In this document: piece by piece, positions 1,258 to 20,700 of the stretch
How the letters are laid out: each line of letters begins with the position of its first letter
How positions within the stretch are numbered: the stretch's first letter is position 1
Origin: an uncultured Kofleriaceae bacterium
Lineage (GTDB): Bacteria; Myxococcota_A; Polyangia; GCA-2747355; CAZCFB01
Direction: 5' to 3'
Length of the DNA stretch: 64,000 nt
Assembly: GCA_964497805.1 (NCBI GenBank)
Contig: CAZCFB010000012.1
Location: forward strand, 3,301-67,300
Position numbers and translations under genes: made by a program
The notes under the pieces: generated by a model
The model's input: the letters and a program-made list of their open reading frames with translations, nothing else
What the model was told of the DNA's origin: nothing
The model's database searches: none

Positions 1258-2520
1258 TTAAAAGCCTTCGATGTCTGAGGTGTTGACTCCGGGTTGGGTG
1301 TCTTCGCCGGGGAACTCTTCATCACCAGTGAACAGGCCCGTGGCTGCTTCGAGTAGGCCGCCGTCATCTGGTGGTGGGGCAGCGTCGGAGCGCTCGCCGG
1401 TGAAGTAGGGCGGCTGGGGCAGGCCGTGGGTTTCAGGGCGGAAGAAGGCCTCGATCATGTCGTCGAAGCCGTCCGCCGCGAGCTTGGACTGGAAGGTGGG
1501 AACCACCCCGGTGGGGGCCATGTAGCCCTCCACCTTCTCGTCCCGGGCCGAGGCGGTCTGGGTGAAGATCCACATATCTTGCACCCGGTAGTCGCCCTTG
1601 CGGGTAAGGGGCAGCACCTCGCTGATGGCGGTGACCTTGCGGCTGCCGTCCCGCATGCGGGCCTGGCAAACCACCACGTCAATTGCCGACGAAACCTGGG
1701 CGCGAACAGCGGTCAGGGGCAGGCCGATGTCGGCCAGCAGGGCCAGGCTCTCCAGCCGGGAGAGGGTCTCTATGGGGCTGTTGGCGTGGGTGGTGCACAG
1801 CATGCCGCCGTGGCCGGTGTTCATGGCCTGCAGCAGGTCGAAACACTCACCGCCGCGCACCTCGCCGATGACGATGCGGTCCGGGCGCAGGCGCAGGGAT
1901 GAGTGCAGCAGGTCGCGCATGCTCACCTCGCCGCGGCCGTGGCGGTCCGGCGGACGGGACTCCAGGGGGACCAGGTGTTCCTGGGTCAGCTGCAGCTCGG
2001 CCGAGTCCTCGATGGTGAGGATCCGCTCCTCGTTGGGAATGGCCTGGGAGAGCACGTTGAGCAGGGTGGTCTTGCCCGAGCCAGTGCCGCCGGCCACCAC
2101 CACGTTCTTTTTGGCCACAACCAGCACTTCAAGCAGGCGCGCCGCCTCCGGGGTGACGGAGCCGAACTGGATCAGCTCCTCCACGGTGAGGCCACCGGGG
2201 AAGAATTTGCGGATGGAGATCACCGTGCCGCAGCGGGCCATGGGGGGCAGGATCACATGGATACGGGAACCATCGGGCAGGCGCGCGTCCAGGCGGGGCT
2301 GCTCCTCGGTGAGGGTCCTACCCACGTACTGCGCCATGTTGCGGGCAGCAGCCAGTAGGCCATCCTCGGTGAATTGGGCCGAGGTGCGGGTGAGCAAGCC
2401 CTTGCGCTCAATCCAGATGTCATCGGGACCATTGATCATGATCTCAGAGACGTCACGGTCATCGAGGAACTGCACAACTGGGCCGAGGAAGGCCCGGAGG
2501 GATTCGCCAAACATGTCCAT
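1258..2520 (-). CDS. cpaF: CpaF/TadA-family (VirB11-like) secretion ATPase, solitary
   Basis: Walker A VVVAGGTGSGKTTLLN, then ILTIEDSAEL, RPDRIVIGEVRG and GHGGMLCTTHANS boxes typical of CpaF/TadA hexameric ATPases. No other tad or pilus genes are adjacent. Confidence 0.8.
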   Translation of the reverse strand: MDMFGESLRAFLGPVVQFLDDRDVSEIMINGPDDIWIERKGLLTRTSAQFTEDGLLAAARNMAQYVGRTLTEEQPRLDARLPDGSRIHVILPPMARCGTVISIRKFFPGGLTVEELIQFGSVTPEAARLLEVLVVAKKNVVVAGGTGSGKTTLLNVLSQAIPNEERILTIEDSAELQLTQEHLVPLESRPPDRHGRGEVSMRDLLHSSLRLRPDRIVIGEVRGGECFDLLQAMNTGHGGMLCTTHANSPIETLSRLESLALLADIGLPLTAVRAQVSSAIDVVVCQARMRDGSRKVTAISEVLPLTRKGDYRVQDMWIFTQTASARDEKVEGYMAPTGVVPTFQSKLAADGFDDMIEAFFRPETHGLPQPPYFTGERSDAAPPPDDGGLLEAATGLFTGDEEFPGEDTQPGVNTSDIEGF

Positions 2521-2878: not shown

Positions 2879-4243
<1,365 letters not shown>

Positions 4244-4339: not shown

Positions 4340-4864
4340 ATGGCCGCCACCGATGTCTCCACCGGAGAGGTCAAGGTCTGCGCATTATCAGGGCGCTTGA
4401 GGGCCAACGCCCTGGGCTCCTGTGTGGCGATCTCCGTCTACGATCGCGCGCGCAAGGTCGGCGGCATGGCTCATGTCATGCTCCCGGGCCGGTCCCCTGC
4501 CAATAAATCCCACAACGGACGCACCCGCTATCTGGATGACGCCCTGGCCGCGCTGCTGGAGGCGGTGGGGGCCGACCATGCGGACCCATGTGCAATGGAG
4601 GTTTGCGTGGCGGGTGGAGCCAACGTCCTCCGCCGGGAAGGGGACAATATCGGGGACGAGAACGCGGCCGCCGCGCTGGCCGGGCTGGAGGCCCAACGGA
4701 TCCCGGTGGCTGCCGCCTCAACCGGGGGGACCAGGCGGCGCACCATGACCCTGCACCTGGCTGACGGCAGGGTGACACACACGGTGGGAGATTCGGCAGA
4801 GCTCCTGCTCTGGAACGGCGGCGGCCGAAGTGAGAACCCCGGCGGATGGAGGCAGGCCCCATGA
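4340..4864 (+). CDS. cheD: chemoreceptor glutamine deamidase CheD
   Basis: 174 aa with LGSCVAISVYD and GGMAHVMLPG, the CheD Cys and His contexts. The length is typical for CheD. Confidence 0.8.
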   Translation: MAATDVSTGEVKVCALSGRLRANALGSCVAISVYDRARKVGGMAHVMLPGRSPANKSHNGRTRYLDDALAALLEAVGADHADPCAMEVCVAGGANVLRREGDNIGDENAAAALAGLEAQRIPVAAASTGGTRRRTMTLHLADGRVTHTVGDSAELLLWNGGGRSENPGGWRQAP

Positions 4865-7065
4865 GCGACGAGCAAGACGGGGCCGTGACCCCCGAGGAGC
4901 TGGAGCAGAGGCTGCGGGAGCGGGTCAAGGAGCTCACCTGCCTCTACGAGCTGTCACGCATGGTTGAGAACGTTGAGCGCCCACTGGGCGAAACCGTGGA
5001 GCTGCTCCTGCCCAAACTCAAGGTCGCGTGGCGGGCGCCGGAGGAGACCACCTGCGTCCGGATCAAGGTCGGGGACGAGGTCTGGCAGACGGAGGACTTC
5101 GTCAAACCGGTGGCGGTACAGACGGCCGCCATCCCAGGGGACGACCGCTGGCCCGTCGGTGAGGTGGCGGTGGGCTACCTGGAGCCGTGGCCACTACTGG
5201 ACGAGGGACCTTTCCTCCACGAGGAGCGGTTCCTGATCAACACCGTGGCCCGCGCGCTGGGCAACCTGGCCAAGCGGCAGCGGGTGCTGGAGGAGATCCA
5301 GGCTGCCAACCAGCAGCTCGAGGCGTCCAACCAACAGCTGCGGGCCAACGAGCAGCAGCTCCAGGCGGCCAACCAACAGCTGCGAGCCAACGAGCAGCAG
5401 CTCCAGGCGGCCAACCAACAGCTGCGGGCCAACGAGCAGCAGCTCCAGGCGGCCAACCAACAGCTGCGGGCCCATGAGCAGCAGCTGGAGGCGGCCAACC
5501 TGGAGGTCAGGGCCAGCGAAGCCCGCTACCGCGGCGTGCTCAACAGCCTCGACTCCGGGGTGGTGGTCCACGCCGCGGACACCTCCATCGTGCTGGCCAA
5601 CCCGCGCGCCTGCGAGATCCTCGGCCTCACCCTGGGCCAGATGGAGGGGAAGGAGGCCATCGATCCCCAGTGGCAGTTCACCCGCGAGGATGACACCACC
5701 TTGCCCCTGGAAGAGTACCCGGTGATGAAGGTGCTCTCACGGGGAACCGACCTGCGCACAATGGTCGTGGGGGTCTACCGGCCGCAGCACAAGGACAAGG
5801 TCTGGGTGCTGGTCAACGGCCACCCCATGTACAACGACGAAGGGGTGGTGGAGCAGGCGATCATCAGCTTCACCGACATCACCCGGCAGAAGGTGGCCGA
5901 GGAGCAGAAACACCGGCTCCAGGCTCAGCTGCTCCAGGCCCAGAAGATGGAGGCCATCGGCACCTTGGCAGGCGGCGTGGCCCACGACTTCAACAACATC
6001 ATCACCGTGATCAAGTCCAACGTGGAGATCGCCCTGGAGGACGAGGGCGGAGACCTCGAAGCCATGGACGAGATCAAGGAGGCGGCCCAGCGCGCCGGTG
6101 AGCTGACCCGCCAGCTGCTGCTCTACAGCCAGAAGCAGCCCATGAACCTGGAGCCGCTGAGCCTCAACGAGGTGGTGCTGGTCTTCTCCTCCATGATCCG
6201 CCGCATCATCGGCGAGGATGTGGCACTGCACAGCGAGTTCGGCGCGAACCTGTGGGGGATCAAGGCAGACCGTGGGAACCTGGAACAGGTCCTGATGAAC
6301 CTGGCGGTCAACGCCCGGGACGCCATGGCCGACGGCGGGGATTTGTTTGTCTGTACAAGCAACCTGACCCTGGACGAGGCCGACGCCGCTCTCCATGCAG
6401 AGGGCGCCCCCGGGGAGTACGTCCTGTTGGAGATGAGGGACACCGGCGAGGGCATCCCGGAGGATGTCCTGGAGCGTGTGTTCGAGCCGTTCTACACCAC
6501 CAAGAAGGCTGGCCGGGGCACGGGGCTCGGCCTCTCGGTGGTCTACGGCATCGTGCAGGAGCACGGCGGGTGGATCGAGGTGACGTCGGCCGAGGGGGAG
6601 GGGGCGACCTTCCGCATCTTCATCCCCCGCACCAGGAAGAAGTCGGCGGCCCCGGCGAGGGTTAAGCAGTTAACCCCGGAAAACCTGGGGCTGGGAGAGC
6701 GGATCCTGTTGGTGGAGGATGATCCGCCGGTGCTGGCCACCATGACCCGCATCCTCGACCGGCATGGGTATCAGGTAACCGTGGCCACGACGGTGGCGGA
6801 GGCGGAGGCGCTCTTCGCCGGGGCGGACGAGCCGATTGACCTGCTCCTGTCGGACGTCATCCTGCCCGACGGCTCAGGCCTCGACATGGCCGTGAAGCTG
6901 GCCGGGGAAAACCCGGAGCTGAAGGTGCTCGTGGCCAGCGGTTACCCGGGGGACAGGTTCGGCTATGAGGAGCTGAAGAAGCAGGGGCTCCCCTTCATCC
7001 AGAAGCCGTTCGAGCTGGGCGCTCTGGTGGGTATGGTGCGCCAAATCCTCGACGGGAAGGCGTAG
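4861..7065 (+). CDS. hybrid sensor histidine kinase (coiled-coil repeat, PAS, HisKA, HATPase_c, REC)
   Basis: H-box GGVAHDFNNIITVI. HATPase boxes NLAVNARDAM, DTGEGI and GTGLGLSVVYG. C-terminal receiver LLSDVILPDGSG. Start set at ATG 4861 (GGAGG at 4848-4852, ATGA overlap with the cheD stop). The track start at 4846 is the alternative. Confidence 0.85.
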   Translation: MSDEQDGAVTPEELEQRLRERVKELTCLYELSRMVENVERPLGETVELLLPKLKVAWRAPEETTCVRIKVGDEVWQTEDFVKPVAVQTAAIPGDDRWPVGEVAVGYLEPWPLLDEGPFLHEERFLINTVARALGNLAKRQRVLEEIQAANQQLEASNQQLRANEQQLQAANQQLRANEQQLQAANQQLRANEQQLQAANQQLRAHEQQLEAANLEVRASEARYRGVLNSLDSGVVVHAADTSIVLANPRACEILGLTLGQMEGKEAIDPQWQFTREDDTTLPLEEYPVMKVLSRGTDLRTMVVGVYRPQHKDKVWVLVNGHPMYNDEGVVEQAIISFTDITRQKVAEEQKHRLQAQLLQAQKMEAIGTLAGGVAHDFNNIITVIKSNVEIALEDEGGDLEAMDEIKEAAQRAGELTRQLLLYSQKQPMNLEPLSLNEVVLVFSSMIRRIIGEDVALHSEFGANLWGIKADRGNLEQVLMNLAVNARDAMADGGDLFVCTSNLTLDEADAALHAEGAPGEYVLLEMRDTGEGIPEDVLERVFEPFYTTKKAGRGTGLGLSVVYGIVQEHGGWIEVTSAEGEGATFRIFIPRTRKKSAAPARVKQLTPENLGLGERILLVEDDPPVLATMTRILDRHGYQVTVATTVAEAEALFAGADEPIDLLLSDVILPDGSGLDMAVKLAGENPELKVLVASGYPGDRFGYEELKKQGLPFIQKPFELGALVGMVRQILDGKA
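5302..5493 (+). repeat. in-frame tandem repeat: 42-bp unit (two 21-bp heptad units), about 4.5 copies, encoding (A-x-x-Q-Q-L-x)x9
   Basis: GCCAACCAACAGCTGCGGGCCAACGAGCAGCAGCTCCAGGCG recurs at 5326, 5368, 5410 and 5452 with 0-4 changes. The peptide is AANQQLEASNQQLRANEQQLQAANQQLRANEQQLQAANQQLRANEQQLQAANQQLRAHEQQLEA. Confidence 0.9.
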
Positions 7066-7070: not shown

Positions 7071-7088
7071 GGGGCGCTATTCCGCCCC
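7071..7088. terminator. small GC hairpin between convergent kinase genes
   Basis: GGGGCG-ctattc-CGCCCC, a 6-bp stem, in the 11-bp gap between the stops at 7065 and 7077. There is no U-tract, so the call is weak. Confidence 0.3.
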
Positions 7089-9056
7089 GCTGTCCTGCCG
7101 GTCCAACACCTCCCGCACTTTCGAGGTCAACTCCTCTGCGGTGAACGGCTTGGGCAAAAAGTCGGTGCCCGGGTCGAGCACGCCGTGGTTGGCGATGGTG
7201 TCCTCGGTATACCCGGACATGAAGAGCGCCTGCAGGCCAGGCCTGAGCAGGATCAGCCGGTCGTGCAGCTCCTTGCCGCTCATGCCTGGCATCACCACAT
7301 CGGTGACCAGGAGGTGGATCTGATCGATATCTTCCCCGACGAGATCCAGGGCGGCCGGGCCGCTCTCGGCGCAGAGCACCCGGTAGCCTGCGCGCTCCAG
7401 GATCCGCTTGCTGAGGGTTCGGACCTGCTCCTGATCCTCCACCAGCAGCAGGGTCTCGTCCCCTTTTTGCAGCTCCTGGACCTCCTGCTCCTCTTCGGTG
7501 TCGGAGCGGGTTTCTCTGGGGAAGTGGATCTGGAAGGTGGCGCCGTCGCCCGGCTGGGAGAGCACGCGGATGTGGCCGTGGTTCTGGGTGACGATGCCGT
7601 ACACCGTGGAGAGGCCCAGGCCGGTGCCCTTGCTCTGGGGCTTGGTGGTGAAGAACGGCTCGAACACCCTGGCGCGGGTCTCCTGGTCCATGCCGTGCCC
7701 GGTGTCCCGCACCGAGAAGAGCACGTACTCACCCCGCGGGATGGCGCCCAGGCCGGTGGATCTGTCCCGCACCGTGATGTTGCGGGTGGTCATCACCAGG
7801 CGCCCGCCGTCCGGCATGGCGTCCCGGGCGTTGATGGCCAGGTTCACCAGCACCTGGTCCACCTGGCCCGGATCAAGGCGGACCCGCCAGAGGCCCTCGC
7901 CGGGGCGGAACTGGAGCACCACGTCCTCACCGATGAGGCGGGTGAGCATCTTCCTGGAGTGCCGGATCATCCCGTTCAGGTTGATGACCCGGGGGGAGAT
8001 GAGCTGCTTGCGGGAGAAGGCGAGCAGCTGCTGCGTGAGCACCGCCGCGCTCTGGGCCGCCCGGGTGATCTCCTCCACGTCCAGGCGCCGTGGATCTGCC
8101 TCATCCATCTCCTCCAGCAGGATGCCGGCGAACCCGCTGATGGCGGTGAGGGTGTTGTTGAAGTCGTGGGCCACCCCTCCGGCCAGGCGGCCGATGGCCT
8201 CCATTTTCTGAGACTGCTGGAGCTGCCCTTCCAGGCGCTCCCGCTCCTGGGCCGCCTCGCGCCGTTCAGTTGTGTCCTGGGTCATGGCCAGGCCTGTGCC
8301 GTCGGGCAGCATGATGGCGTTGAGCAACATCCAGCGGCGGGCGCCTTCCTTGACGCGGTACAGGATCTCGCCCTTGGCCTGGCCCGTTGCCTTGTACTGG
8401 CCCCAGATTCTGGCCGCCTGGCGGGTGTACTCCGGGGCCCACAGCTCGGGAATCGTCTTGCCCAGCAGCTCATCCTCGGCGTAGCCGGTTGACTCGCAGT
8501 CCGCCTGGTTCACCTCGATGAAGCGACCGGTCGCGTCGTAGACCATGATCGGGAGGGGGGAGCCCTGGATATAGGCCCGGTACCGGCTCTCGCTGGCCGC
8601 CAGCATCGCCTCGGTCTCCTTGCGCTCGGTGATGTCCGTGGCGATGTGGATGATGTATTCCACGGCTCCGGCCTGGTCGAGCACCGGGGTGCAAGAAACC
8701 AGGAAGATCCGCCCCACGGCCTCCATCTCCATGTCCACGGACTCGTACGCCCCCCCCTTGATGGCGGTGTCGAGGGGGCAATCGTGCGGGGCCTCACTGG
8801 CGCTGTGGAAAATCTCAAAGCACTTGCGGGTGCACAGCTCGCCGAGGTTGAGGCCGGACAAATCCTGGGCCGCCTCGTTGGCGTGGATGATCTTGTGATC
8901 GGGATCCAGGATCAGGGTGGGGTGCCCGATGGCCTGGAAGATGACCTCCCACTGCAGGAGCTGCCCTGGTCCGGCGCCGTTGGGCCGGCCGGCCAGGGTC
9001 TGGTCGCCTTCCCATTGAACCTCGCTGGACGGAACTCCAGTCTTCTGGTCTGCCAT
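7077..9056 (-). CDS. hybrid sensor histidine kinase (PAS-PAS-HisKA-HATPase_c-REC)
   Basis: H-box GGVAHDFNNTLTAI. HATPase boxes NLAINARDAM, DTGHGM and GTGLGLSTVYG. Receiver LLVTDVVMPGMSG. Start set at ATG 9056 (AGGAG 6 nt upstream). The track ORF begins at a TTG at 9104. Confidence 0.85.
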   Translation of the reverse strand: MADQKTGVPSSEVQWEGDQTLAGRPNGAGPGQLLQWEVIFQAIGHPTLILDPDHKIIHANEAAQDLSGLNLGELCTRKCFEIFHSASEAPHDCPLDTAIKGGAYESVDMEMEAVGRIFLVSCTPVLDQAGAVEYIIHIATDITERKETEAMLAASESRYRAYIQGSPLPIMVYDATGRFIEVNQADCESTGYAEDELLGKTIPELWAPEYTRQAARIWGQYKATGQAKGEILYRVKEGARRWMLLNAIMLPDGTGLAMTQDTTERREAAQERERLEGQLQQSQKMEAIGRLAGGVAHDFNNTLTAISGFAGILLEEMDEADPRRLDVEEITRAAQSAAVLTQQLLAFSRKQLISPRVINLNGMIRHSRKMLTRLIGEDVVLQFRPGEGLWRVRLDPGQVDQVLVNLAINARDAMPDGGRLVMTTRNITVRDRSTGLGAIPRGEYVLFSVRDTGHGMDQETRARVFEPFFTTKPQSKGTGLGLSTVYGIVTQNHGHIRVLSQPGDGATFQIHFPRETRSDTEEEQEVQELQKGDETLLLVEDQEQVRTLSKRILERAGYRVLCAESGPAALDLVGEDIDQIHLLVTDVVMPGMSGKELHDRLILLRPGLQALFMSGYTEDTIANHGVLDPGTDFLPKPFTAEELTSKVREVLDRQDSGAE

Positions 9057-9324
9057 TCCCAGCTCCTGAAGGGTCCTGCGACCCTTCGGCGTCCCCAAAT
9101 TCAAAGCTGATCTGAGTTGAGATTTTAGTCCGGGGGCCTACCCGGTGACAACAGTCACTGGCTGTACTGCCACCGGGGCCCGGACACGCCCTCCGGGGTG
9201 CCAGTCCTGTTGCCAATTTGGCACTCGGTTTCGGGCAAGATCGGTCCCATTGCCAGAATGTCCCAAAGAGGGGCCGAGTATCGATTTCGCCCCAATGTTT
9301 TCAGGTAATTAGCCTGTTGACAGT

Positions 9325-9340
9325 TGGCATCGAGTTTGCT
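9325..9340 (+). promoter_or_regulatory. sigma54-type -24/-12 promoter candidate for the gsp operon
   Basis: TGGCAT-cgagt-TTGCT is a near-consensus match to TGGCAC-N5-TTGCW, 49 nt upstream of the gspD ATG. A perfect TTGACA at 9316-9321 overlaps it, so a sigma70 reading cannot be excluded. Confidence 0.6.
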
Positions 9341-9388
9341 CTAACTCAGCCCGAGCCAGTGACTGCTCATCACTACAGGGTATCCAGC

Positions 9389-11908
9389 ATGAAGCCAAGT
9401 CGCATTCCCAAACTGATCCCGGCCGCGGCCATCGCCGCCACGGTCATCCTCATCGCCGGCCTGATGATACCGGCCACTTCCCATGCCCAGTCCAGAGGTG
9501 GCAGGGGCGGGGGCCGGGCGGACGAAACCCGCTCAGGGGGCGCCGCCAAGGCGGAGAAGGAGGTCGCCGGCAGCGCGGGCGATCCTCTGGCCACCACGGT
9601 CACCACCACCACGGCCGGTGGGAAGATCAAGGTGGAGCCAGCCAAGCTGGAGTACAACGAGTGCCTTGGCCGTAAGGCCCGCCGGGCCGCGTACAAGTTC
9701 TCCCTGAACAAGGGCACCGAGCTGCTGGAGCTGGTGGAGTTGATCAGCAAGATGACCTGCAAGCGGTTCATCGTCTCGGAGACCCTGCGCGCCCAGAAGG
9801 TGACCATCATCTCGCCGGAGAAGATCACGGTGGAGGAGGCGTACAAGGCGTTCCTCAGCTCCCTGGACGTGATGGGGCTCACCGTGGTGCCGGCTGGCCG
9901 CTACCTGAAGATTGTCCAGGGGAACTGGGCCATCCAGGGCCCGATCAAGACCTTCGGCGACAAGCAGAAGGGGCGCACCCCCCTCACCGATGACGTGGTG
10001 ACGCAGATCATCCAGGTCAAGAACGTGGACGTAAACGAGATGCTGCTGGTGCTGAACAAGCTGAAGTCGCGTAACGGCGACATCACCGCTTACAAGCCCA
10101 GCAACTCTCTGATCATCACCGACAACGGCTACAACATCCGCCGCATGCTCTACCTGATCAAGGAGCTGGACCTGGAGTCCGAGGGGGAGAAGATCTGGGT
10201 GGTCCGTCTCAAGTACGCCGACCCGGACGAGGTGAACAAGATCCTGAGCCAGCTCTTCTCGGCCACGGGCAACGCGCGGCCCCAGGTGCGGGGGAGGCCG
10301 GGCAGGCAGCGGGACGACGCCAGCCAGGTGCGCGCCTCAAAGATCGTCTCCGACTCTGCCTCCAACTCCCTGATCATCGTTGCCAGCACCGGCTCGTTCA
10401 ACCGCATCGCCTCCCTGATCAAGAAGCTCGACGTGGAGGAGGACGCGGCCACGCAGAAGGTACATGTCTACTACCTGGAGAACGCCGACGCCGAGGACCT
10501 CTCCAACACCCTCGGCGCCCTCACGGGCACTTCGGGCGGCCGCAACGTACGCGGCCGGCGGCCAGCGCGGCGGCCCGGCGGCGGCCAGCAGGCGGCCACC
10601 CTGTTTGAGGGGGACGTCAAGATCAGCGCTGACAAGCCCACCAACTCCCTGGTCATCGTGGCCACCACCAAGGACTACCTGAACCTGCGCGGCGTGATCC
10701 AGAAGCTGGACATCCCGCGCCGGCAGGTGTTCGTGGAGGCGAGCATCCTCGAGATCAGCATGGACAACACGAAGAAGGTGGGCTTCGCCTACCACGGCGG
10801 CGGCGTGGCGGGGGAGGGGGACACCGAGTCCCTGATCTTCGGCGGCGTGGAGTCCTCGGACCTGAACTCCCTGCTGGTCAACCCCCTGGGCATGATGGGC
10901 CTGGCCGTGGGCGTGAGGGGCGCGGAGATCCAGGGGTCCGGGCAGCTGCTGGGCGTGGGCACCGACATCCCTGGCTTCGGCGTCATGTTCCAGGCGCTGC
11001 AGAACAACAGCGACGTGAACATCCTCTCCTCTCCTCACATCCTCACCACCGACAACGAGGAGGCGGAGATCACGGTGGGGCAGAACCTGCCGTTCCAGGG
11101 CGCCATGATGGGCGGCGGCTTCGGCGGGCTCGCAGGTGCGGCTGGCGCGGCTGGCGCTGCCGGCGGCGCGGCGGCGCTCTCCTCCTTCCTGCCCGGCGTC
11201 TCGGTGCAGCGCCAGGACGTGGCCCTGAAGATGAAGATCACCCCCCACGTCAACGAGAGCGAGATGGTGCGCCTTGAGCTGGAGCAGGAGGTCTCGGACA
11301 TCGTCTCCCAGAACTTCAACGGCATGGGGCCGGCCACCTCCAAGCGTTCGGCCAAGACGGTGGTGGTGGTGCGTGATCAGCAGACCGTCGTCATCGGCGG
11401 CCTCATGGGCAACCGGGTGCGCAACTCGGTGAGCAAGGTGCCGATCCTGGGCGACATCCCGATCCTGGGTTACCTGTTCAAGTACAAGAAGAAGACCACC
11501 GAGAAGACGAACCTGCTCATCGTGTTGACCCCGTACATCATCCGGGACCAGACCGACCTGCGGCGTATCCTGAAGAAGAAGATGGAGGAGCGGCGGGAGT
11601 TCATCGAGCGCTACACCAGCTTCAAGTACCACGAGATAACCGCCGACGTGGACTTCCGCCACAAGCGCGGCCTGCTTGCCGAGATCAACCGCGTGGCGGG
11701 CCAGGCCGAGCAGGAGGCCAAGCTGCTGGAGGAGGCGCGCAAGGCGTCGGAGCCGGAGGACGTGGAGCCGGTGGAGATGCCCACTGGCATGACCGTGACG
11801 CCGGTGAAGGGCAAGGGCACCAGGCGCAACCCGCGCCGGCAACCCGCCTCGGAGATTCGCCACCCGCCGCGGCCAGTTATCCGCGAGCGGCCCAGGCGGA
11901 TTCGCTAG
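9389..11908 (+). CDS. gspD: type II secretion system secretin GspD
   Basis: Signal peptide MKPSRIPKLIPAAAIAATVILIAG. N-domain repeats (NSLIITD, NSLIIVAS, NSLVIVAT). Secretin domain (VVIGGLM...VPILGDIPILGYLFKY). Start moved to ATG 9389, in frame with track ORF 9218. Confidence 0.9.
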   Translation: MKPSRIPKLIPAAAIAATVILIAGLMIPATSHAQSRGGRGGGRADETRSGGAAKAEKEVAGSAGDPLATTVTTTTAGGKIKVEPAKLEYNECLGRKARRAAYKFSLNKGTELLELVELISKMTCKRFIVSETLRAQKVTIISPEKITVEEAYKAFLSSLDVMGLTVVPAGRYLKIVQGNWAIQGPIKTFGDKQKGRTPLTDDVVTQIIQVKNVDVNEMLLVLNKLKSRNGDITAYKPSNSLIITDNGYNIRRMLYLIKELDLESEGEKIWVVRLKYADPDEVNKILSQLFSATGNARPQVRGRPGRQRDDASQVRASKIVSDSASNSLIIVASTGSFNRIASLIKKLDVEEDAATQKVHVYYLENADAEDLSNTLGALTGTSGGRNVRGRRPARRPGGGQQAATLFEGDVKISADKPTNSLVIVATTKDYLNLRGVIQKLDIPRRQVFVEASILEISMDNTKKVGFAYHGGGVAGEGDTESLIFGGVESSDLNSLLVNPLGMMGLAVGVRGAEIQGSGQLLGVGTDIPGFGVMFQALQNNSDVNILSSPHILTTDNEEAEITVGQNLPFQGAMMGGGFGGLAGAAGAAGAAGGAAALSSFLPGVSVQRQDVALKMKITPHVNESEMVRLELEQEVSDIVSQNFNGMGPATSKRSAKTVVVVRDQQTVVIGGLMGNRVRNSVSKVPILGDIPILGYLFKYKKKTTEKTNLLIVLTPYIIRDQTDLRRILKKKMEERREFIERYTSFKYHEITADVDFRHKRGLLAEINRVAGQAEQEAKLLEEARKASEPEDVEPVEMPTGMTVTPVKGKGTRRNPRRQPASEIRHPPRPVIRERPRRIR

Positions 11909-11921
11909 AGGAGGCGAGGCC

Positions 11922-13658
<1,737 letters not shown>

Positions 13659-13824
13659 AGATGTCCGAGGCGCGAATAATGATGCGGTTTGGTCGAGAAA
13701 CTGGCGCCGAGGTCAAGGCGCGACGACGAAGGCGTACCAGAGGTACGTCGAGGAGGAGCAACGCAGAGATCGGCGCCTGGGGCCGGCCAGACCGCGTTGT
13801 GACTTCCGCCGAGGACATCTAACC

Positions 13825-15057
13825 GTGCCGGTATTCGCGTACAAGGGCGTCGACGCCAAGGGCAAGCAGGTTTCCGGGGTCAAGGACGCCGATGGCCGCC
13901 GGGGGCTGCGCGCCTCGCTCCGCAAGGAGGGGGTGCTGGTCACCGACATCTCCGAGGAGCGGGAGCGGGTCGTCAGCGGCGAGGGGCTCAACCGAGAGGT
14001 GGACGTCAAGGGGCTGTTCGACCGGGTCCGGCCCCAGGACGTGGCGGTCGTCACGCGCCAGCTCGCCACCCTCATCCGCGCGGGCATCCCCCTGGCCGAG
14101 TCCCTGTCCGCCATGGGGGAGCAGGCCACCAGCGACCGGCTCAAGCGGTGCATGGCCGAGATACGCACCAAGGTTAACGAGGGCACGTCTCTGGCCGACG
14201 CCCTGGCCGAGCATCCGAAGATCTTCGACGATCTGTACGTGAACATGGTCCGCGCGGGCGAGGCTGCCGGGAACCTGGACGATGTGTTGGCCCGGCTGGC
14301 CGACTTCCTCGACGGGCAGGTGAAGCTCAAGGGGAAGGTCCAGGGGGCCATGGTCTACCCCATCGTCATGGCCATGGTGAGCGTGGCCATCACCGGCATG
14401 TTGATGGTGGTGGTGGTGCCGAAGATCACCGAGATCTTCTCCGACATGGGCCGGTCTCTGCCCTGGAACACTCAGCTGCTGGTCTGGCTCAGCGGTATCA
14501 CCGGGAACTACTGGTGGCTGATCCTCCTGCTGTCCGCTGGAGGGTATTACGGGTTCAAGCGCTGGAAGACGAGCAAGTCCGGGAAGCCGGTGTACGACGG
14601 CATCGTGCTGCGGCTCTGGCTGGTGGGGCCCCTGGTGCGCATGGTGGCGGTGGGCCGGTTTGCCCGCATCCTCGGCACCCTGCTCCACGGCGGCGTGCCC
14701 CTGCTGCAAGCCCTGGAGATCGTCAAGTTCCTGCTGGGCAATGAGGTGCTGATCAAGGTGGTGGACAAGGCGCGGGTCTCCATCCGCGAGGGCGAGAGCA
14801 TCGCCGCCCCGCTGGAGAAGAGCGGCCAATTCCCGCCGCTGGTGACCCGGATGATCGCGGTGGGGGAGCGGTCGGGCCACCTGGAGGAGATGCTGGAGAA
14901 CGTGGCCCAGGCCTACGAGACCGAGGTGGAGCTGAAGCTGAACCGGCTGACCACCCTGATGGAGCCGCTGCTGATCCTCTCCATGGGCGGCATCGTGGGC
15001 TTCATCGTGTTCTCCATCCTGATGCCGATCCTGGAGATGAACGAGATGGTGGGGTAG
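13825..15057 (+). CDS. gspF: type II secretion inner-membrane platform protein GspF
   Basis: 410 aa with a duplicated GspF/PilC-type domain (LATLIRAGIPL, LGTLLHGGVPLLQAL) and three hydrophobic segments. GTG start. Confidence 0.9.
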   Translation: MPVFAYKGVDAKGKQVSGVKDADGRRGLRASLRKEGVLVTDISEERERVVSGEGLNREVDVKGLFDRVRPQDVAVVTRQLATLIRAGIPLAESLSAMGEQATSDRLKRCMAEIRTKVNEGTSLADALAEHPKIFDDLYVNMVRAGEAAGNLDDVLARLADFLDGQVKLKGKVQGAMVYPIVMAMVSVAITGMLMVVVVPKITEIFSDMGRSLPWNTQLLVWLSGITGNYWWLILLLSAGGYYGFKRWKTSKSGKPVYDGIVLRLWLVGPLVRMVAVGRFARILGTLLHGGVPLLQALEIVKFLLGNEVLIKVVDKARVSIREGESIAAPLEKSGQFPPLVTRMIAVGERSGHLEEMLENVAQAYETEVELKLNRLTTLMEPLLILSMGGIVGFIVFSILMPILEMNEMVG

Positions 15058-15080
15058 GGCCCGCCAAACTGGAGGCAGTT

Positions 15081-15512
15081 ATGAGCTTGATAATGAACGT
15101 GGCGAAGGCCCTGAAGAAGAAGCAGCGGCCTGCTCAGGAACGTGAGCTGGGTATGACCCTCATCGAGATCATGGTGGTGGTGGCCATCATCGGGTTGCTC
15201 ATGGGGACGGTGGGCGTGGTGGCGTACAACCGCTTCCAGAAGGCGAAGCTCACCAACGCCAAGATGATCGTCAAGAACATGCAAGAGGCGATCGTGCACT
15301 ACTTCATGGACAACCAGGACAAGTGCCCCACCGACCTGAAGGCCCTGTACACCCAGAAGTACATCAACAAGGAGCCCCAGGACCCGTGGGGTCAGGAGCT
15401 GAAGTTCAAGTGCCCGGGGGAGAACGACACCCAGGGCGCGGACATCTACTCCATGGGGCCTGACCGCAAGGACGGCACCGAGGACGACATCAAGAGCTGG
15501 GAGCTCGACTAG
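15081..15512 (+). CDS. gspG: major pseudopilin GspG
   Basis: Prepilin motif LG/MTLIEIMVVVAIIGLL. C-terminal GspG signature DPWGQELKFKCPG...GPDRKDGTEDDIKSW. Confidence 0.9.
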   Translation: MSLIMNVAKALKKKQRPAQERELGMTLIEIMVVVAIIGLLMGTVGVVAYNRFQKAKLTNAKMIVKNMQEAIVHYFMDNQDKCPTDLKALYTQKYINKEPQDPWGQELKFKCPGENDTQGADIYSMGPDRKDGTEDDIKSWELD

Positions 15513-15518
15513 GGGTGC

Positions 15519-16388
15519 ATGCGCCGCGCCGGGTCACATAGGCGGGAGACCGCCGGATTCACCATCATGGAGCTGATGATCGTCGCGGCGATCTTCGGGC
15601 TGATCATGGTGGGCGCCACGGCGAGCCTGCGCAACCTGACCCGGGCCGACCTCCGCTCGGCGGCCAGCCGCACCGCGGGGGCCATGCGCTACGTCTTCGA
15701 CCGCGCGGCCATGACCGGCCACTACCTCCGCCTGGCCATCGACATCAAGGAGGGCCGCATCTGGATCGAGTACTCCGAGGACCTGGTCCGCCTGCGCGCC
15801 GGCCGGGAACAGCATGTACTGGAGAAGGGGCAGAAGGATCACTCCGGCGAGGCGCGGGCCAAGCTGCGCCAGGCCGCCGAGGAGCGCAAGGGCGGCAGCG
15901 ACTTCCTCGGCTCCATGCTCGGGCTGGGAGGAGACGACGACTACGACGAGGACGGCAACCTGCTGGAGGATGACGAGGAGTTCATCGGGGGGCTGGACGG
16001 CAAGCAGATCGCGGACGAGGCGGAGCTGATGAACATGCCGGTGATCCGGCCCAAGGCCTCCTTCAAGCCGCTTCAAAACGTGGTGACGCGCACCATCAAG
16101 CTCAAGGGCGGGGTGAAGGTCGCCTCGGTGATCACGCCCCGCCTCGCGGAGGCCACCAAGCAGGGGATGGCGTACATCTACTTCTTCCCTCAGGGCCACA
16201 GCGAGCCCGCCATCGTCTACTTCACCGACGAGGAGGAGGAGAAGGTCTACTCGGTGGTGCTGCACCCGCTCACGGGTCGGTCGGTGGTCTACTCATGCGA
16301 GTACGAGATCCCCGACGACTTCGGCGTGAGCGACGACAAGCGCAAGTCCACAAGCCGTGAGAAGTGCAAGAAGGGTGGGAGCTTGTGA
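15519..16388 (+). CDS. gspH: minor pseudopilin, GspH-like (unusually long, acidic insert)
   Basis: Prepilin motif AGFTIMELMIVAAIFGLIMV. Lies directly after gspG. 289 aa with the insert GGDDDYDEDGNLLEDDEEF. Confidence 0.6.
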   Translation: MRRAGSHRRETAGFTIMELMIVAAIFGLIMVGATASLRNLTRADLRSAASRTAGAMRYVFDRAAMTGHYLRLAIDIKEGRIWIEYSEDLVRLRAGREQHVLEKGQKDHSGEARAKLRQAAEERKGGSDFLGSMLGLGGDDDYDEDGNLLEDDEEFIGGLDGKQIADEAELMNMPVIRPKASFKPLQNVVTRTIKLKGGVKVASVITPRLAEATKQGMAYIYFFPQGHSEPAIVYFTDEEEEKVYSVVLHPLTGRSVVYSCEYEIPDDFGVSDDKRKSTSREKCKKGGSL

Positions 16389-17092
16389 GGCGCGCCCGGC
16401 CACATACCGCGGGCTTCACCCTGCTGGAGGTGATGATCGCCCTGGCGATCCTTGCCATGTCCCTGATCACCCTCTCCAGCTCGTACCAGAACAGCGTGCG
16501 GGCGGCCAATCGGTCCCGGCTCATGACCGAGGCCACCCTGCTGGCTCGCTACAAGATGGTCGAGGTGGAGGAGGAGATCTTCAAGGAGGGCTTCTCTGAC
16601 TTTGATGAGGAGGAGGAGGGGGACTTCGAAGACGAGGATTTCGAGCGGTTCAAGTACACGCTCCTGGTGGAGAAGGTGGAGCTGCCCAAGTCGGTTGACC
16701 AACAGGACGCCATGGATCTGATGGGGAGCAGCTCCAGCTCTTCAAGCTCGTCCTCCTCATCCTCCTCGGGCACCGGCAGCCCCATGGACATGCTGGGCGG
16801 CGGCATCCTCGCCTCCTACTACGACATGATCCGCCAGGTGCTGGAGCGGAGCATCCGGCGGGTGCAGCTCAAGGTGCACTGGAAGGAGGGGGCCGTCTCC
16901 CGTGAGGTGACGGTGGTCTCCTACTTCACCGACGATCGCTACATCTCCCAGGCGGCCTCTGGATCGCTCTCCCCGGCCGGCCTGAACACCTCGGGCACAA
17001 GCGGCACAGGCGGCACGGCCACCTCGGGCTCCTCCGGCGCCGGCTCCCCATCCACCGCGCCGGCCATGAACACGGGAGGGCTCAAGCGGTGA
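16385..17092 (+). CDS. gspI: minor pseudopilin, GspI-like (poly-Ser insert)
   Basis: Prepilin motif AGFTLLEVMIALAILAMSL. Start set at GTG 16385 (GTGA overlap with the gspH stop). The track start at 16364 is the alternative. Confidence 0.6.
   Translation: MRRARPHTAGFTLLEVMIALAILAMSLITLSSSYQNSVRAANRSRLMTEATLLARYKMVEVEEEIFKEGFSDFDEEEEGDFEDEDFERFKYTLLVEKVELPKSVDQQDAMDLMGSSSSSSSSSSSSSSGTGSPMDMLGGGILASYYDMIRQVLERSIRRVQLKVHWKEGAVSREVTVVSYFTDDRYISQAASGSLSPAGLNTSGTSGTGGTATSGSSGAGSPSTAPAMNTGGLKR
16727..16768 (+). repeat. 14-codon serine homopolymer inside gspI
   Basis: AGC AGC TCC AGC TCT TCA AGC TCG TCC TCC TCA TCC TCC TCG. Mixed Ser codons argue for selection on the peptide rather than slippage. 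Confidence 0.9.
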
Positions 17093-17790
17093 TCCGGTCA
17101 CGGTCACAGTCACGGTCGCTGGACCAGGGCTTCACGCTCATGGAGGTCCTGGTCTCTCTGGCGATCCTGGCGGGTATGTCCACCATCGTCTGGGGCTCCT
17201 TCTCCATGACCTCGCGCACCAAGCGCAAGGTGGAGGACATCGAGGACCGGTACCACCAGATCAGGCTCGCGATGAACCGCATGGCGCGGGAGATCAGCAT
17301 GGCCTACCTGTCCAAGAACGATCAGCCCATGGCCCAGACGCCGCGCACCATGTTCATCCACTCGCGGGAGAGCTCGGTGGACGAGCTGATGTTCAGCAAC
17401 TTCGCCCACACGCGCCTGCGCGAGGAGGCCAAGGAGTGCGATCAGGCGGTGATCCGGTACTTCAGCGCGGCGGATCCGGAGGACAGCAGCCAGACCAACC
17501 TGATGCGGCGGGAGACCCGCCGGCTGGGCAGCCTGAAGCCGGAGGACGAGGGGCCGGCCTACGTGATGCTCGAGGACATCGAGGAGCTGCACTTCGAGTT
17601 CTTCGACGACCAGATGAACGAGTGGAAGGACACCTGGAATACGCGGTCCCTGGACGGCCAACCCGACCGGCTGCCGGCCAAGATCAAGATCGAGCTCACC
17701 GTGGAGGATTACTGGGGCAAGGAGATCACCTTCGTCACCGCCACGCGGATCTTTGTGCGCAACCCGCTCTGGTTCAGCGCGGGGTCCTAG
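17089..17790 (+). CDS. gspJ: minor pseudopilin GspJ-like
   Basis: Prepilin motif QGFTLMEVLVSLAILAG. 4-bp overlap with gspI. Size and position fit GspJ. Confidence 0.65.
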   Translation: MIRSRSQSRSLDQGFTLMEVLVSLAILAGMSTIVWGSFSMTSRTKRKVEDIEDRYHQIRLAMNRMAREISMAYLSKNDQPMAQTPRTMFIHSRESSVDELMFSNFAHTRLREEAKECDQAVIRYFSAADPEDSSQTNLMRRETRRLGSLKPEDEGPAYVMLEDIEELHFEFFDDQMNEWKDTWNTRSLDGQPDRLPAKIKIELTVEDYWGKEITFVTATRIFVRNPLWFSAGS

Positions 17791-17802
17791 AGGAGAGATG
17801 GA

Positions 17803-19113
17803 GTGAAAGAGGGCCACCACAAACGACGCCGCAATGACCGGGAGCGGGGCGCGGCCCTGGTCTCCGTGGTCGTCGTGGTGGCGGTGATGGCCGTGACCAC
17901 GGCGGACTTCGCCTTCAACACCACCATGGATCTGGCCGCGGCGGCCAACGCGCGGGACGACCTGCGCGCCCACTTCCTGGCCCGCTCCGGCATCAACCTG
18001 TCCCGGCTGCTCTTCCGCCTGCAGCAGCGCATCATCGATCCGAACCGCAAGTTCCTGGGCGGCATGGACCTGCAGGTGGCCGACTACGCGCCCCTGCTCA
18101 TGAGCGCGTTCAACAGCAAGGAGGGGGCAGCGCTGCTCGGCTCCCTGTTCGGCATCAGCGAGGGCGAGATCAAGGGGATCGGGGTGGACGTGGGCACCTT
18201 TGACCTGGAGGTGGAGTCCACCGATGGCCGCATCAACCTGAACTGCGGGGGCGGAGCGAACCCGTCCAGCCCGTCGGTGGTGCGCATGGCCGCGGGGCTC
18301 ACGGCCATGATGATGGCCCCCCGCTATAACCGCCTGTTCGAGGAGCCGGACTCCAAGGGGGAGTACGCCGACCGGCTGGAGATCCTGCGCGCCATCATCG
18401 ACTGGGTGGACCAGGACACCGTGATGTTCGGCTCCTCCGCGGTGGAGGACTACCGCTACAACACCGGCAAGGACCCGTACGAGAACAAGAACCAGTACCT
18501 CGACACCATCGACGAGCTGTACCTGATCAAGGGCGTCGAGGAGGACTGGATGGACGCGTTCCGCTCCTCGGTGACGGTGTACGGCGCGTGCAAGGTGAAC
18601 GTGAACATCGCCACGCCCACCACCATCGTCGCCCTGATCCTGCAGTACGCTCAGACCCCGACCCACCCCTCCATGCGGTGGGAGAACGTAATGCTCCTCT
18701 CCCGCTATGTGGTGCACCTGCGCGACTACTTCGGTGGGTTCAAGGACGAGGAGTCGTTCGTGCGGGCGATCATCGACCCCATGGACGTGACGCTCACGGC
18801 GTACAAGCAGGGGTTCGGGCAGATCTCGGCGGGTACGGGCAGCAGCTCATCCACGACGTCAACCCCACCCAAGAACGTGTCCTCCTACCAGCAGTCGCTG
18901 CCTCCTGTCATCGGGGTGCCGGTGAAGAAGAAGCCGCTCAAGGAGGCCATCGTGGCGGGAGGGCCGCGGAGGATCTACGAGATCCGGGCCACGTCCGAGG
19001 TGGGGCATATCAAAAAGAAGATCACCGCGGTTTGGGACATGAAGCTGATCCCGATGTCGCGGACGCAAGCTCAGGCAGGGCCCGGCGGGTTCCTGTACTG
19101 GCGGGAGGAGTAA
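17803..19113 (+). CDS. gspK: minor pseudopilin GspK-like
   Basis: N-terminus ERGAALVSVVVVVAVMAV, the pseudopilin-like helix without Glu5 seen in GspK. 436 aa. Position fits the operon order. Confidence 0.65.
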   Translation: MKEGHHKRRRNDRERGAALVSVVVVVAVMAVTTADFAFNTTMDLAAAANARDDLRAHFLARSGINLSRLLFRLQQRIIDPNRKFLGGMDLQVADYAPLLMSAFNSKEGAALLGSLFGISEGEIKGIGVDVGTFDLEVESTDGRINLNCGGGANPSSPSVVRMAAGLTAMMMAPRYNRLFEEPDSKGEYADRLEILRAIIDWVDQDTVMFGSSAVEDYRYNTGKDPYENKNQYLDTIDELYLIKGVEEDWMDAFRSSVTVYGACKVNVNIATPTTIVALILQYAQTPTHPSMRWENVMLLSRYVVHLRDYFGGFKDEESFVRAIIDPMDVTLTAYKQGFGQISAGTGSSSSTTSTPPKNVSSYQQSLPPVIGVPVKKKPLKEAIVAGGPRRIYEIRATSEVGHIKKKITAVWDMKLIPMSRTQAQAGPGGFLYWREE

Positions 19114-19116
19114 CCC

Positions 19117-20700
19117 ATGGCGCAGATGGTCCTCGGGATCGATTTGGGATCCCACAGCGTCAAGGTAGCCCGGCTGGAGGTTGGGATGCGCAAGGTTGAG
19201 GTCGCGCACCTGGAGACCCTCCCGGTGCCCTCGGGGCCCGAGCCGCAGCTCACGCGCAGCCTGGAGGCGCTCCAGGGGTTGGAGCTACCCGACAGCGGCG
19301 TGGACCTGGTGACCCTCGGGCTCCCCGGGGACAAGGTGCTGCAGCGGCTGTTCGAGATCCCGGTCACCGACGCCAGGCGGCTGGCGGCGGTGGTCCAGAA
19401 CGAGCTGGCCGACGACATCCCGTGGGAGGTGGATGAGGTCCTGTTCGACCACGCGGCGGTGCCCCAGTTGCCGGGGCAGGTGCTGGTGGTGGCCACCCGA
19501 TCCGAGGCAGTGGAGGAGGTGATCGAGGCCTGCGAGCCGCTGGAGATCACCCCACGCAATATCCCCCCGGCGCCGCTGAGCTATGGCCAGCTGCTGCGGG
19601 GCGCTGACGCGGACGGCGTGACCCTGGTGGCTGACATCGGCCACCGCCTGACAAACCTCTGCCTGGTGGCCGACGGCAGGCCCATCTCGGCCCGCTCCAT
19701 CTCCCGCGGCGGCTACAACTTCACCGACGCCATCCGGCGGGCCTTCCAGATCTCATTTGACGAGGCGGAGGACCTCAAGGAGCGGTACGCGCAGGTGGCC
19801 CCCGGCGACGGGGAGGGGCTGGATCCCAGGGTCAAGGCCATGACGGGGATCCTCCGGGAGGCGCTGGATCCGCTGGTGCGTGAGATGCGCCTCACCCTCG
19901 GCGTGATGGGCGGCAAGCTCGGCATGGCGCCGGGGCGGATCCTCCTCTGCGGCGGCACGAGCCTGCTGCCCGGGCTGGACGAACACCTGTCCGCGGAGCT
20001 GGGGCTCCCGTGCAAGCGCCTGAGCCTGGACCAGGACCCGAACATGTCGGTGGGGGGCATGACCGGCGACGCCCAGGCCCTGGGGGCGCTCTCGTTGGGC
20101 CTCTGCCTGCAGCAGGGCGGCAGGACCGGCCTGGACCTTCGTCAGGGTGAGTACGCCTTCCGCACGGACAGCTCCATCTTCCGCGAGAAGCTCACCACCC
20201 TGGCCGTGTCCACGGTGCTGATCCTGGTGTTCCTCACCCTCAACGCCCTGAGCAGCCTCTACTCCATGCGCAAGGAGGAGGTCCTGCTCAAGAACCGCCT
20301 GAAGCAAGCCTCCCGGGCCGTGTTCGGCGAGGTGATCACGAGCCCGCGTAAGATCTCGCTCATGATCCGCCGTGGCTCCGGGCCGCGGGGCGCGGTGATC
20401 CCGGAGAAGACCGCATTTGACCTGCTGAACCTCTTCTCGAGCAAGATCCCGGCCTCCATGGAGGGGGAAACCGACAAGAAGGGGAAGCCGGTGAAGCTAA
20501 ACCTGGACATCGCCCGCCTGGATATCAAGCAGGAGAAGACCTCCATGTCGGGCACGGCTGATTCCCGCTCCCAGATCGACTCCATCGTCAAGGCGGTGTC
20601 GTCGGATCCATGCGTGAGCAAGGTGACCCAGGGCAAGATCTCGACGGTGGCGGAGGAGAAGAAGCAGTTCTCCCTCACCATCTTTACGGAGTGTTTTTAG
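19117..20700 (+). CDS. gspL: GspL-like assembly protein with PilM/actin-like N-terminal domain
   Basis: VLGIDLGSHSVKVARLE actin-fold start. One transmembrane segment LTTLAVSTVLILVFLTLNAL. Lies between gspK and gspM. Confidence 0.6.
   Translation: MAQMVLGIDLGSHSVKVARLEVGMRKVEVAHLETLPVPSGPEPQLTRSLEALQGLELPDSGVDLVTLGLPGDKVLQRLFEIPVTDARRLAAVVQNELADDIPWEVDEVLFDHAAVPQLPGQVLVVATRSEAVEEVIEACEPLEITPRNIPPAPLSYGQLLRGADADGVTLVADIGHRLTNLCLVADGRPISARSISRGGYNFTDAIRRAFQISFDEAEDLKERYAQVAPGDGEGLDPRVKAMTGILREALDPLVREMRLTLGVMGGKLGMAPGRILLCGGTSLLPGLDEHLSAELGLPCKRLSLDQDPNMSVGGMTGDAQALGALSLGLCLQQGGRTGLDLRQGEYAFRTDSSIFREKLTTLAVSTVLILVFLTLNALSSLYSMRKEEVLLKNRLKQASRAVFGEVITSPRKISLMIRRGSGPRGAVIPEKTAFDLLNLFSSKIPASMEGETDKKGKPVKLNLDIARLDIKQEKTSMSGTADSRSQIDSIVKAVSSDPCVSKVTQGKISTVAEEKKQFSLTIFTECF

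Follow-up and report, generated by a model that had tools for sequence, protein, structure and literature searches.

CheD binds chemoreceptors and deamidates specific glutamine residues in them (PMC3513319, PMC7289035, PMC3579733), and the Thermotoga maritima enzyme has also been reported to be a methylesterase (PMC3579733; the NCBIfam model NF041119 carries this name). It further recognizes CheC, which contains a mimic of the receptor site; when a Gln is introduced into this mimic by engineering, CheD deamidates it (PMC3513319), which implies that CheD is able to act on helices that do not belong to receptors. Adaptation through such covalent modification is regarded as a hallmark that separates chemotaxis from generic two-component systems. 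Here we describe a cheD gene that overlaps the gene for a hybrid sensor histidine kinase with nine tandem Gln-Gln-Leu (QQL) heptads in its linker helix; both lie in a stretch of 64,000 nucleotides (nt) from an uncultured Kofleriaceae bacterium (contig CAZCFB010000012.1, positions 3,301 to 67,300), which is referred to below in its entirety as the window. Such a cheD and such a kinase constitute a conserved two-gene module that is specific in both directions, and sequence comparisons strongly support a functional tie of this cheD to the QQL kinase, as opposed to its being a stray chemotaxis gene. The components of the module in the window are the following:

4340-4864, + strand: cheD, encoding a divergent CheD-family Cys-His amidohydrolase of 174 amino acids (Cys28, His45)
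4847-4864, + strand: translational-coupling junction, with GGAGG at 4847-4851 and then ATGA
4861-7065, + strand: hybrid sensor histidine kinase of 734 amino acids, with a GAF-like N-terminal domain, a long helix with the QQL array, and PAS, HisKA, HATPase_c and REC domains
4891-5178, + strand: small alpha/beta sensor domain at the N-terminus, residues 11-106 (alignment, AlphaFold2 pLDDT 93, Foldseek)
5218-5532, + strand: continuous predicted helix, residues 120-224, from the N-terminal domain to PAS, holding the array (AlphaFold2)
5302-5493, + strand: nine in-register Gln-Gln heptads, the proposed CheD target (translation; family logo)
5311-5500, + strand: 42-nt tandem DNA repeat, two heptads per unit, 4.5 copies, 94% identity (Tandem Repeats Finder)
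5521-5892, + strand: PAS domain, residues 221-344 (Pfam)
5959-6138, + strand: HisKA dimerization and phospho-acceptor domain, residues 367-426 (Pfam, E 5.3e-07)
6268-6633, + strand: HATPase_c catalytic domain, residues 470-591 (Pfam, E 1.4e-24)
6703-7038, + strand: C-terminal receiver domain (Response_reg), residues 615-726 (Pfam, E 1.1e-15)

The product of 4340-4864 matches the Pfam CheD family (PF03975, E 8.7e-19), and its residues 7-152 can be aligned with T. maritima CheD (PDB 2F9Z chain C, E 1.2e-16), whose catalytic Cys and His fall on Cys28 (in GSC28) and His45 (in AH45VMLP). The kinase ATG at 4861 shares bases with the cheD TGA at 4862-4864, and the GGAGG element lies 8 nt 5' of this ATG. 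A second, earlier in-frame ATG at 4846, to be added to an earlier note on this DNA that was made from its letters alone, is disfavored by the Shine-Dalgarno spacing; five independent metagenome contigs carry the identical sequence, and there too the gene callers begin the kinase at 4861. Neither Pfam scans of all long open reading frames nor tblastn searches with the Escherichia coli Che proteins, including Tar, recovered a CheA, CheW, CheR, CheB, CheZ or methyl-accepting chemotaxis protein (MCP) in the 64 kb; as positive controls, Paenibacillus and haloarchaeal loci did give tblastn matches.

We define the module by a CheD of the GGANVL/R133 clade described below whose gene is immediately followed, on the same strand, by that of a sensor bearing three or more in-register A-x-[N/E]-Q-Q-L heptads; in the window, CheD has V96, L97 and R133, the array counts nine heptads and the junction is ATGA. 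For the forward direction, 80 loci with flanks of at most 10 kb were taken from contigs representing one genome per species, on the basis of an alignment of the 40 closest CheD relatives; a QQL run was counted as at least three QQL triplets exactly seven residues apart in any of the six frames, and Che proteins were sought by tblastn. Among the 53 related loci in which tblastn found no che genes within 10 kb on either side, 36 have a QQL run in the very next gene, on the strand of cheD and 60-2436 nt downstream, and no run is found elsewhere in the flanks (up to 10 kb on each side) of these 36. At least six of the remaining 17 have less than 1 kb of contig downstream of cheD, and in five the CheD falls outside the clade of the window protein. 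A QQL run is absent from all 26 loci in which cheD belongs to a che cluster (Paenibacillus, haloarchaea and others); each of these shows tblastn matches to CheA, CheW, CheB or CheR. The paired arrangement is found in Planctomycetota (Sedimentisphaerales, Brocadiaceae), Bacteroidota, Fibrobacterota, Fidelibacterota, Myxococcota, Desulfobacterota, Nitrospirota, Chloroflexota, Elusimicrobiota, Omnitrophota, Firestonebacteria, Thermotogaceae and Victivallales, and the association in both directions spans at least 12 phyla.

The reverse search started from metagenome contigs with a degenerate DNA pattern for N-Q-Q-L-x-A-x-E-Q-Q-L-x-A-x-N-Q-Q-L; the 120 loci were chosen without reference to cheD, and the CheD set was then searched against them by tblastn. 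A cheD stands directly upstream on the same strand in 71 of these and elsewhere in the locus in five; 23 have at least 700 nt of upstream sequence and no cheD, and 21 are too truncated to tell, so that cheD is present in 76 of the 99 informative QQL loci (77%). In 106 cheD-partner pairs the partner starts at a median of 14 nt after the cheD stop, and 32 of the pairs overlap, 14 of them by 4 nt. Searches by tblastn gave no matches to CheR or CheB in about 200 loci, and nothing resembling the cytoplasmic domain of Tar in the QQL loci.

These results bear on most of what the earlier note had proposed. Its reading of the locus, namely a cheD with both catalytic residues, an ATGA overlap with the kinase, nine heptads at 5302-5493 that all match the receptor motif, nearly identical 42-mers beneath them and no further che gene in 64 kb, is confirmed throughout, by the Pfam match and the 2F9Z alignment, the bases at 4861-4864, the translated sequence, the 42-nt unit recovered by Tandem Repeats Finder, and the Pfam and tblastn scans respectively. 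The survey of cheD genes adjoining QQL-heptad kinases that it suggested shows that the pairing recurs (36 of 53 che-free loci, 71 of 120 metagenome loci), and the circumstance that it named as damaging, QQL repeats being equally frequent in kinases with no cheD nearby, does not hold given the 76 of 99 informative loci. As to its hypothesis that CheD tunes a non-MCP kinase, two-way comparative genomics upholds the functional tie between the two genes, and the Gln-to-Glu step is a deduction to which we return below.

A neighbor-joining tree of 149 CheD sequences from all loci, rooted on the haloarchaeal CheDs, places the window protein in a clade of 118, of which 106 have a QQL partner, 11 lack one and one is mixed; no che-cluster CheD of the 149-sequence tree falls in this clade. 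The Cys and His are 100% conserved in the 106 QQL-linked CheDs, as they are in the che-cluster CheDs. The residues that discriminate the clade are GGANVL in place of the canonical GGAxMF and Arg133 in place of Gly, and its members possess a short C-terminal extension ending in LLW. The divergence is also apparent in the profile scores, since of the nine NCBIfam CheD equivalogs matched by the window protein eight give about 50-82 bits and the ninth 30.6, against cutoffs of 223-369. A profile search over 1.84 billion representative proteins yielded 6692 CheD-like matches at E<=1e-10 and 301 at E<=1e-30 (clusters at 50% identity), the latter figure being a rough measure of the size of the clade at 50% clustering.

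The array of the window kinase reads AANQQLE ASNQQLR ANEQQLQ AANQQLR ANEQQLQ AANQQLR ANEQQLQ AANQQLR AHEQQLE A. Chemoreceptors are modified at sites with the consensus [A/S]-x-x-[E/Q]-[E/Q]-x-x-[A/S], and all nine octets of the array match its Gln-Gln form, [AS]-x-x-Q-Q-x-x-[AS], at a spacing of seven residues on a predicted helix. It is the only run of [EQ][EQ]L heptads in the window. In an AlphaFold2 model of the kinase (25-sequence alignment, pLDDT 93, a predicted local confidence score) the helix of residues 120-224 is unbroken, with the array inside it. At the DNA level, three of the 42-nt units differ by a single base. A short contig from the same population (L005) lacks exactly 84 nt (5327-5410), corresponding to two 42-nt units or four heptads, which is either a copy-number polymorphism or a collapse of short-read assembly; the same contig also has a small indel near 5146-5154. 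An orthologue at 76% identity (P0001) has five heptads. The copy number of the heptads is labile.

A logo of 198 distinct arrays with 1112 heptads, in which Q-Q-L is 100/100/100% by selection, reads A(92%)-[A33 S26 T12 N9]-[N56 E39]-Q-Q-L-[R37 Q14 K14], and the repeat can be written in peptide form as (AANQQLRANEQQLQ)n. Array length is 3-16 heptads, with a median of five and a maximum of 16, and the position at +3 is Lys or Arg in about 51% of the heptads. The residue preceding the Gln pair alternates, with N followed by E 377 times, E by N 366 times, N by N 102 times and E not once by E; this makes 14 residues the true period, the same as that of the 42-nt DNA unit. Among 805 heptads with QQL at both +7 and -7, 742 are QQL, nine are EQL, and neither QEL nor EEL occurs. 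As a change from Gln to Glu takes a single base and is nevertheless nearly absent, both positions are under strong selection for Gln.

Pfam analysis of 53 full-length QQL proteins recovered HATPase_c in 46, PAS in 41, HisKA in 32, REC in 31, GAF in 13, HisKA_3 in seven and HAMP in two. Nearly all partners are PAS/GAF histidine kinases, and the 25 families that Pfam lists most often for them do not include the MCP signaling domain. Given the kinase domains and the lack of an MCP domain among these families, the module serves ordinary sensor kinases. The window kinase conforms to this picture: Pfam finds no MCP signaling domain (PF00015) in it, and its C-terminal half is CckA-like and PRK13557-like. 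The fold of its N-terminal domain is weakly GAF/PAS-like (best Foldseek E 1e-3, to GAF and PAS domains); searches of the Pfam, NCBIfam and PDB sequences with this domain and the array returned spurious coiled-coil matches only, and no model covers either. The N-terminal domain, characterized by the motifs ERVKELxCLY, WQYPE(I)TCARI and DEGPFLxEER, recurs in many sensor proteins, twice within one of them (P0002). It often has QQL arrays on both sides (as in P0004), and in a Maribacter protein (P0050) it lies directly before HisKA.

Both components also occur in other arrangements. One protein, P0071, is a natural fusion of CheD, four QQL heptads and PAS (AlphaFold2 model, pLDDT 93), and seven of the top 150 clade representatives have CheD fused N-terminally to PAS/histidine kinase modules. 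In all three loci that we inspected for fusions of the latter kind without QQL, a QQL-array protein is encoded next door: a dCache_1-HAMP protein with eight heptads 1.5 kb upstream of the CheD fusion in L209 (1489-6770), a dCache_3 protein ending in five heptads immediately upstream in L210 (5969-11987), and a HAMP protein with three heptads immediately upstream in L211 (1856-4018). We therefore set such fusions aside as evidence against a link between CheD and QQL. These loci look like split sensors, composed of an input-QQL protein and a CheD-kinase, in which CheD may be a docking module and the CheD-QQL contact may also be a protein-protein interface. In three CheD-histidine kinase fusions (P0230, P0234, P0244) we observed a different repeated motif in the linker, about 60-130 residues after the CheD domain, of the approximate form A-[SFYL]-[LI]-N-[ILF]-[MILVF]-[EQ]-[ED]-[LM]-[EA] (ASLNIMEDLE, ASLNFMEDLA, AFLNLLE, AYINIVEDME), which may be another type of CheD-associated helix.

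On balance, we think it probable that CheDs of this clade bind the Gln pairs of the signaling helix of the kinase and convert them to Glu, thereby setting kinase output; the chemistry is what we infer from the 100% conserved Cys and His and the near-absolute Gln at both positions. On this reading a CheD clade left the chemotaxis machinery and came to act on the helical linker of ordinary two-component sensors, the linker arrays being built of A-[A/S/T]-[N/E]-Q-Q-L-[R/K/Q] heptads that match the chemoreceptor modification motif. Translational coupling would place newly made CheD in stoichiometric proximity to the kinase, where it would bind the exposed Gln pairs and hydrolyze them to Glu. Up to 18 negative charges per chain of the window kinase would thus be added to the coiled coil that is predicted to carry the signal from the GAF-like N-terminal domain to PAS and the core of dimerization/histidine phosphotransfer and catalytic domains, and the added charge would shift the on/off equilibrium of the kinase, as at chemoreceptor methylation sites. 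Because the module comes without CheR or CheB, the modification would run in one direction only, and could represent either a step in maturation or a slow memory cleared only as the protein turns over. Gains and losses of 42-nt units would adjust the length of the array. Both the direction of the effect on kinase activity and the irreversibility of the deamidation are suppositions that go with this proposal. The pairing of CheD with QQL arrays appears to be a mode of control of ordinary two-component sensors that has so far gone undescribed.

Several observations weigh against this proposal. Of the 99 informative QQL loci, 23 have no cheD nearby, and the seven CheD-sensor fusions have no QQL in the same chain. 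The equivalent of T. maritima Thr21, which Chao et al. in 2006 reportedly described as the third active-site residue, is Ala22 here, six residues before the Cys, and is mostly Ala in the clade (consensus LxASALGSC). The canonical Phe of GGAxMF, which we take to correspond to F102 of Bacillus subtilis CheD, is Leu in the clade. Mutation of F102 weakens the binding of CheD to CheC and receptors (PMC3513319), so the substitution suggests that substrate recognition has changed. Glu is almost never encoded at the QQ positions, where it would be expected at least sometimes if it were the working state. In B. subtilis, moreover, the binding of CheD to receptors and CheC counts more for chemotaxis than its deamidase activity (PMC3513319). 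The last two points, and the fusions without QQL in cis, speak instead for an array that is only a binding site, CheD being a non-catalytic subunit or adaptor that stabilizes one signaling state of the helix. In the split systems CheD would then couple the sensor-QQL protein to the CheD-fused kinase, and the split arrangement, with a dCache or HAMP protein ending in QQL directly upstream of the CheD-PAS/histidine kinase fusion in L210 and L211, is compatible with such a docking interface and makes docking a live alternative. Nevertheless, we judge docking alone, the main rival, to be the less likely reading: a Cys/His pair conserved in all 106 clade members across many phyla is unexpected in a pure binding module, docking has no need of 5-16 tandem copies or of strict Gln over Glu, given that CheC binds CheD through a Glu-containing mimic, and a stand-alone CheD of 174 amino acids offers no second domain on which regulation could act.

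Catalysis of another kind on the Gln pairs, either transglutaminase-like formation of a cross-link or amine adduct from a thioester or esterase action on a modified Glu, would fit the Lys or Arg at +3 in about 51% of the heptads. The CheD fold is common to the CNF1/DNT deamidase and transglutaminase toxins, and the methylesterase report on T. maritima CheD points the same way. We regard this as improbable, since the one reaction of CheD on Gln that has been shown is deamidation, and since no gene for a methyltransferase or another modifying enzyme recurs in the neighborhood, the CheR and CheB searches having given nothing in about 200 loci. The gene might also be a displaced chemotaxis cheD serving MCPs elsewhere in the genome, its position before the kinase being meaningless, in favor of which it can be said that elsewhere, to our knowledge, CheD is familiar solely as an enzyme of chemoreceptors. 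Against this stand the two-way association over at least 12 phyla, the separate clade devoid of che-cluster CheDs, the tight or overlapping junctions, the natural fusions to sensor kinases, and the many hosts that are Bacteroidota, Chlorobium or Planctomycetota metagenome-assembled genomes; on the clade structure and fusions we reject it as very improbable. Even less credible is a low-complexity coiled coil born of CAG-rich slippage that resembles the receptor motif by chance. The near-identity of the 42-nt units and their variable number between contigs would fit slippage, but the same heptad is encoded with different codons and copy numbers in 198 distinct arrays, with 92% Ala at -3, with N/E alternation in which E never follows E, and in the company of cheD; the family-wide logo and the association statistics thus lead us to reject a chance origin.

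The surroundings of the module in the window include the following features:

2834-2849, + strand: sigma54-like -24/-12 element, TGGCAC-N5-TTGTA, one mismatch, 30 nt before the regulator gene; weak
2879-4243, + strand: NtrC-type response regulator with REC, sigma54 AAA+ and HTH_8 domains (Sigma54_activat 7.9e-70, Response_reg 2.9e-29)
7077-9104, - strand: second hybrid kinase, convergent, with two PAS domains, HisKA, HATPase_c and REC (Pfam)
9325-9340: sigma54-like element, one mismatch, about 50 nt before gspD at 9389

The NtrC-type regulator ends 97 nt before cheD on the same strand, and the earlier note took it for the output of the module, with a sigma54-type gsp promoter as a possible target. 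A sigma54 AAA+ gene lies directly upstream of cheD in only two of 155 cheD loci, the window and one other, which indicates that the regulator is not part of the conserved module, and we reject it as a conserved third component. The two sigma54-like matches are sensibly placed, but 2.28 are expected in the window by chance, so they were dropped as evidence for the output. An output through NtrC and gsp is therefore unsupported, though locally plausible and specific to this locus. The stop codon of the second hybrid kinase is separated by 11 nt from that of the first, and it has no QQL array. Further afield, 9325-24080 holds a type II secretion or pilus-like cluster (GspD at 9389-11908, GspE, GspF, GspG, pseudopilins and a PilM-like protein), and a separate T2SSE-family ATPase is encoded at 1258-2520 (-). 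There are also a GAF-GAF-GGDEF diguanylate cyclase at 24110-25759 (-), a TamB-family protein of 1517 amino acids at 32239-36792 (-), a tyrosine recombinase (XerC/D-like) at 37000-37905 (+), and large open reading frames without a Pfam match at 38779-40659, 44607-46559, 51072-54977 and 56070-59524.

A related type of array emerged when a synthetic N-E-E-L heptad was used as query, which retrieved fragments named 'CheB/CheR fusion protein' by JGI, many with PAS_10. The logo of these Glu-type arrays is [S57 T31 A9]-[T/S/A]-[N73 K13]-E-E-L-[Q51 E24], the +3 position being Gln or Glu as against mostly Arg, Lys or Gln in the QQL arrays. In L212 (4105-6297) CheB_methylest and CheR fragments stand in series with a NEEL array, and in L213 (4752-7692) a CheR gene comes just before the array, with CheB_methylest nearby. 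Together with the CheD/QQL loci, these indicate that receptor-modifying enzymes co-occur with heptad arrays in non-MCP sensors in two flavors, and suggest that the Glu-type arrays are a second, reversible version of the same idea. This raises the possibility, which we advance tentatively, that covalent adaptation extends beyond chemoreceptors, with ordinary two-component sensor kinases of many phyla carrying either Gln-Gln/CheD arrays that are modified one way and act as timers or memories or Glu-Glu/CheR-CheB arrays that are reversible, their length tuned by repeat expansion. If so, chemoreceptor chemistry would have been recruited to tune ordinary PAS/GAF histidine kinases, with which the Glu-Glu/CheR-CheB arrays agree. 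Orphan cheD genes of non-chemotactic lineages, such as those in Bacteroidota, Planctomycetota and Chlorobium, would gain a function, and the stereotyped, unannotated repeat of many sensor proteins would be accounted for. The module would also offer a simple two-protein system that relates the charge of a signaling coiled coil to kinase output. A full-text search, with subscription journals largely outside it and a prior mention therefore possible, found no published account of orphan CheDs with sensor kinases or of QQL or NEEL heptads, and a literature search of similar reach found no functional study of the CheB/CheR fusion proteins.

The closest described relative of the window protein is the chemotaxis CheD of B. 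subtilis and T. maritima (2F9Z), with which it shares the Pfam family, the fold and the Cys/His pair; the targets, of which the one here is proposed, share the receptor motif on a long helix. In chemotaxis the target is the four-helix bundle of an MCP, whereas here it would be the linker helix of a histidine kinase, with no MCP, CheA, CheW, CheC, CheR or CheB nearby, and the window protein has Ala for Thr21, Val-Leu for the Met-Phe of GGAxMF, and Arg133 for Gly. The mimicry of receptors by CheC is similar in that CheD recognizes a short helical motif outside MCPs, but CheC is an inhibitor and phosphatase with one Glu-containing mimic site, while the module has 3-16 Gln-Gln sites in a kinase and no CheC. 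Tar and Tsr of E. coli, which are deamidated by CheB and methylated by CheR, resemble the array in having helix sites seven residues apart; in them an encoded Gln stands in for methyl-Glu as its neutral mimic, and the charge of the sites tunes kinase output. MCPs differ in having few sites, mostly encoded as Glu, a reversible cycle and a separate kinase, CheA. S-helices and Q-linkers are helical or Gln-rich connectors between input and output modules, the position that the array occupies, but they are defined by coiled-coil character or composition in general, and we know of none in which a Q-Q-L heptad is strictly kept, N and E alternate with a period of 14 residues, or an enzyme gene is dedicated to the connector. 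Finally, the CheB/CheR fusions (KEGG K13924) use the same heptad template, [small]-[small]-N-[EE or QQ]-L-x, which in them too lies in a helical linker that precedes PAS, and as in the module the array is physically tied to chemoreceptor-modifying enzymes in non-MCP sensors. The likeness is restricted to this template, there being no CheB_methylest or CheR domains in the kinase or the window. The fusions have Glu-Glu, with Q/E and not R/K/Q at +3, and a methyltransferase and a methylesterase in or beside the array gene, which implies a reversible cycle. Viewed against all these systems, the enzyme family and the motif of the module are known, and its class of target, its dedicated arrays and its separate CheD clade are, so far as the searched literature shows, new.

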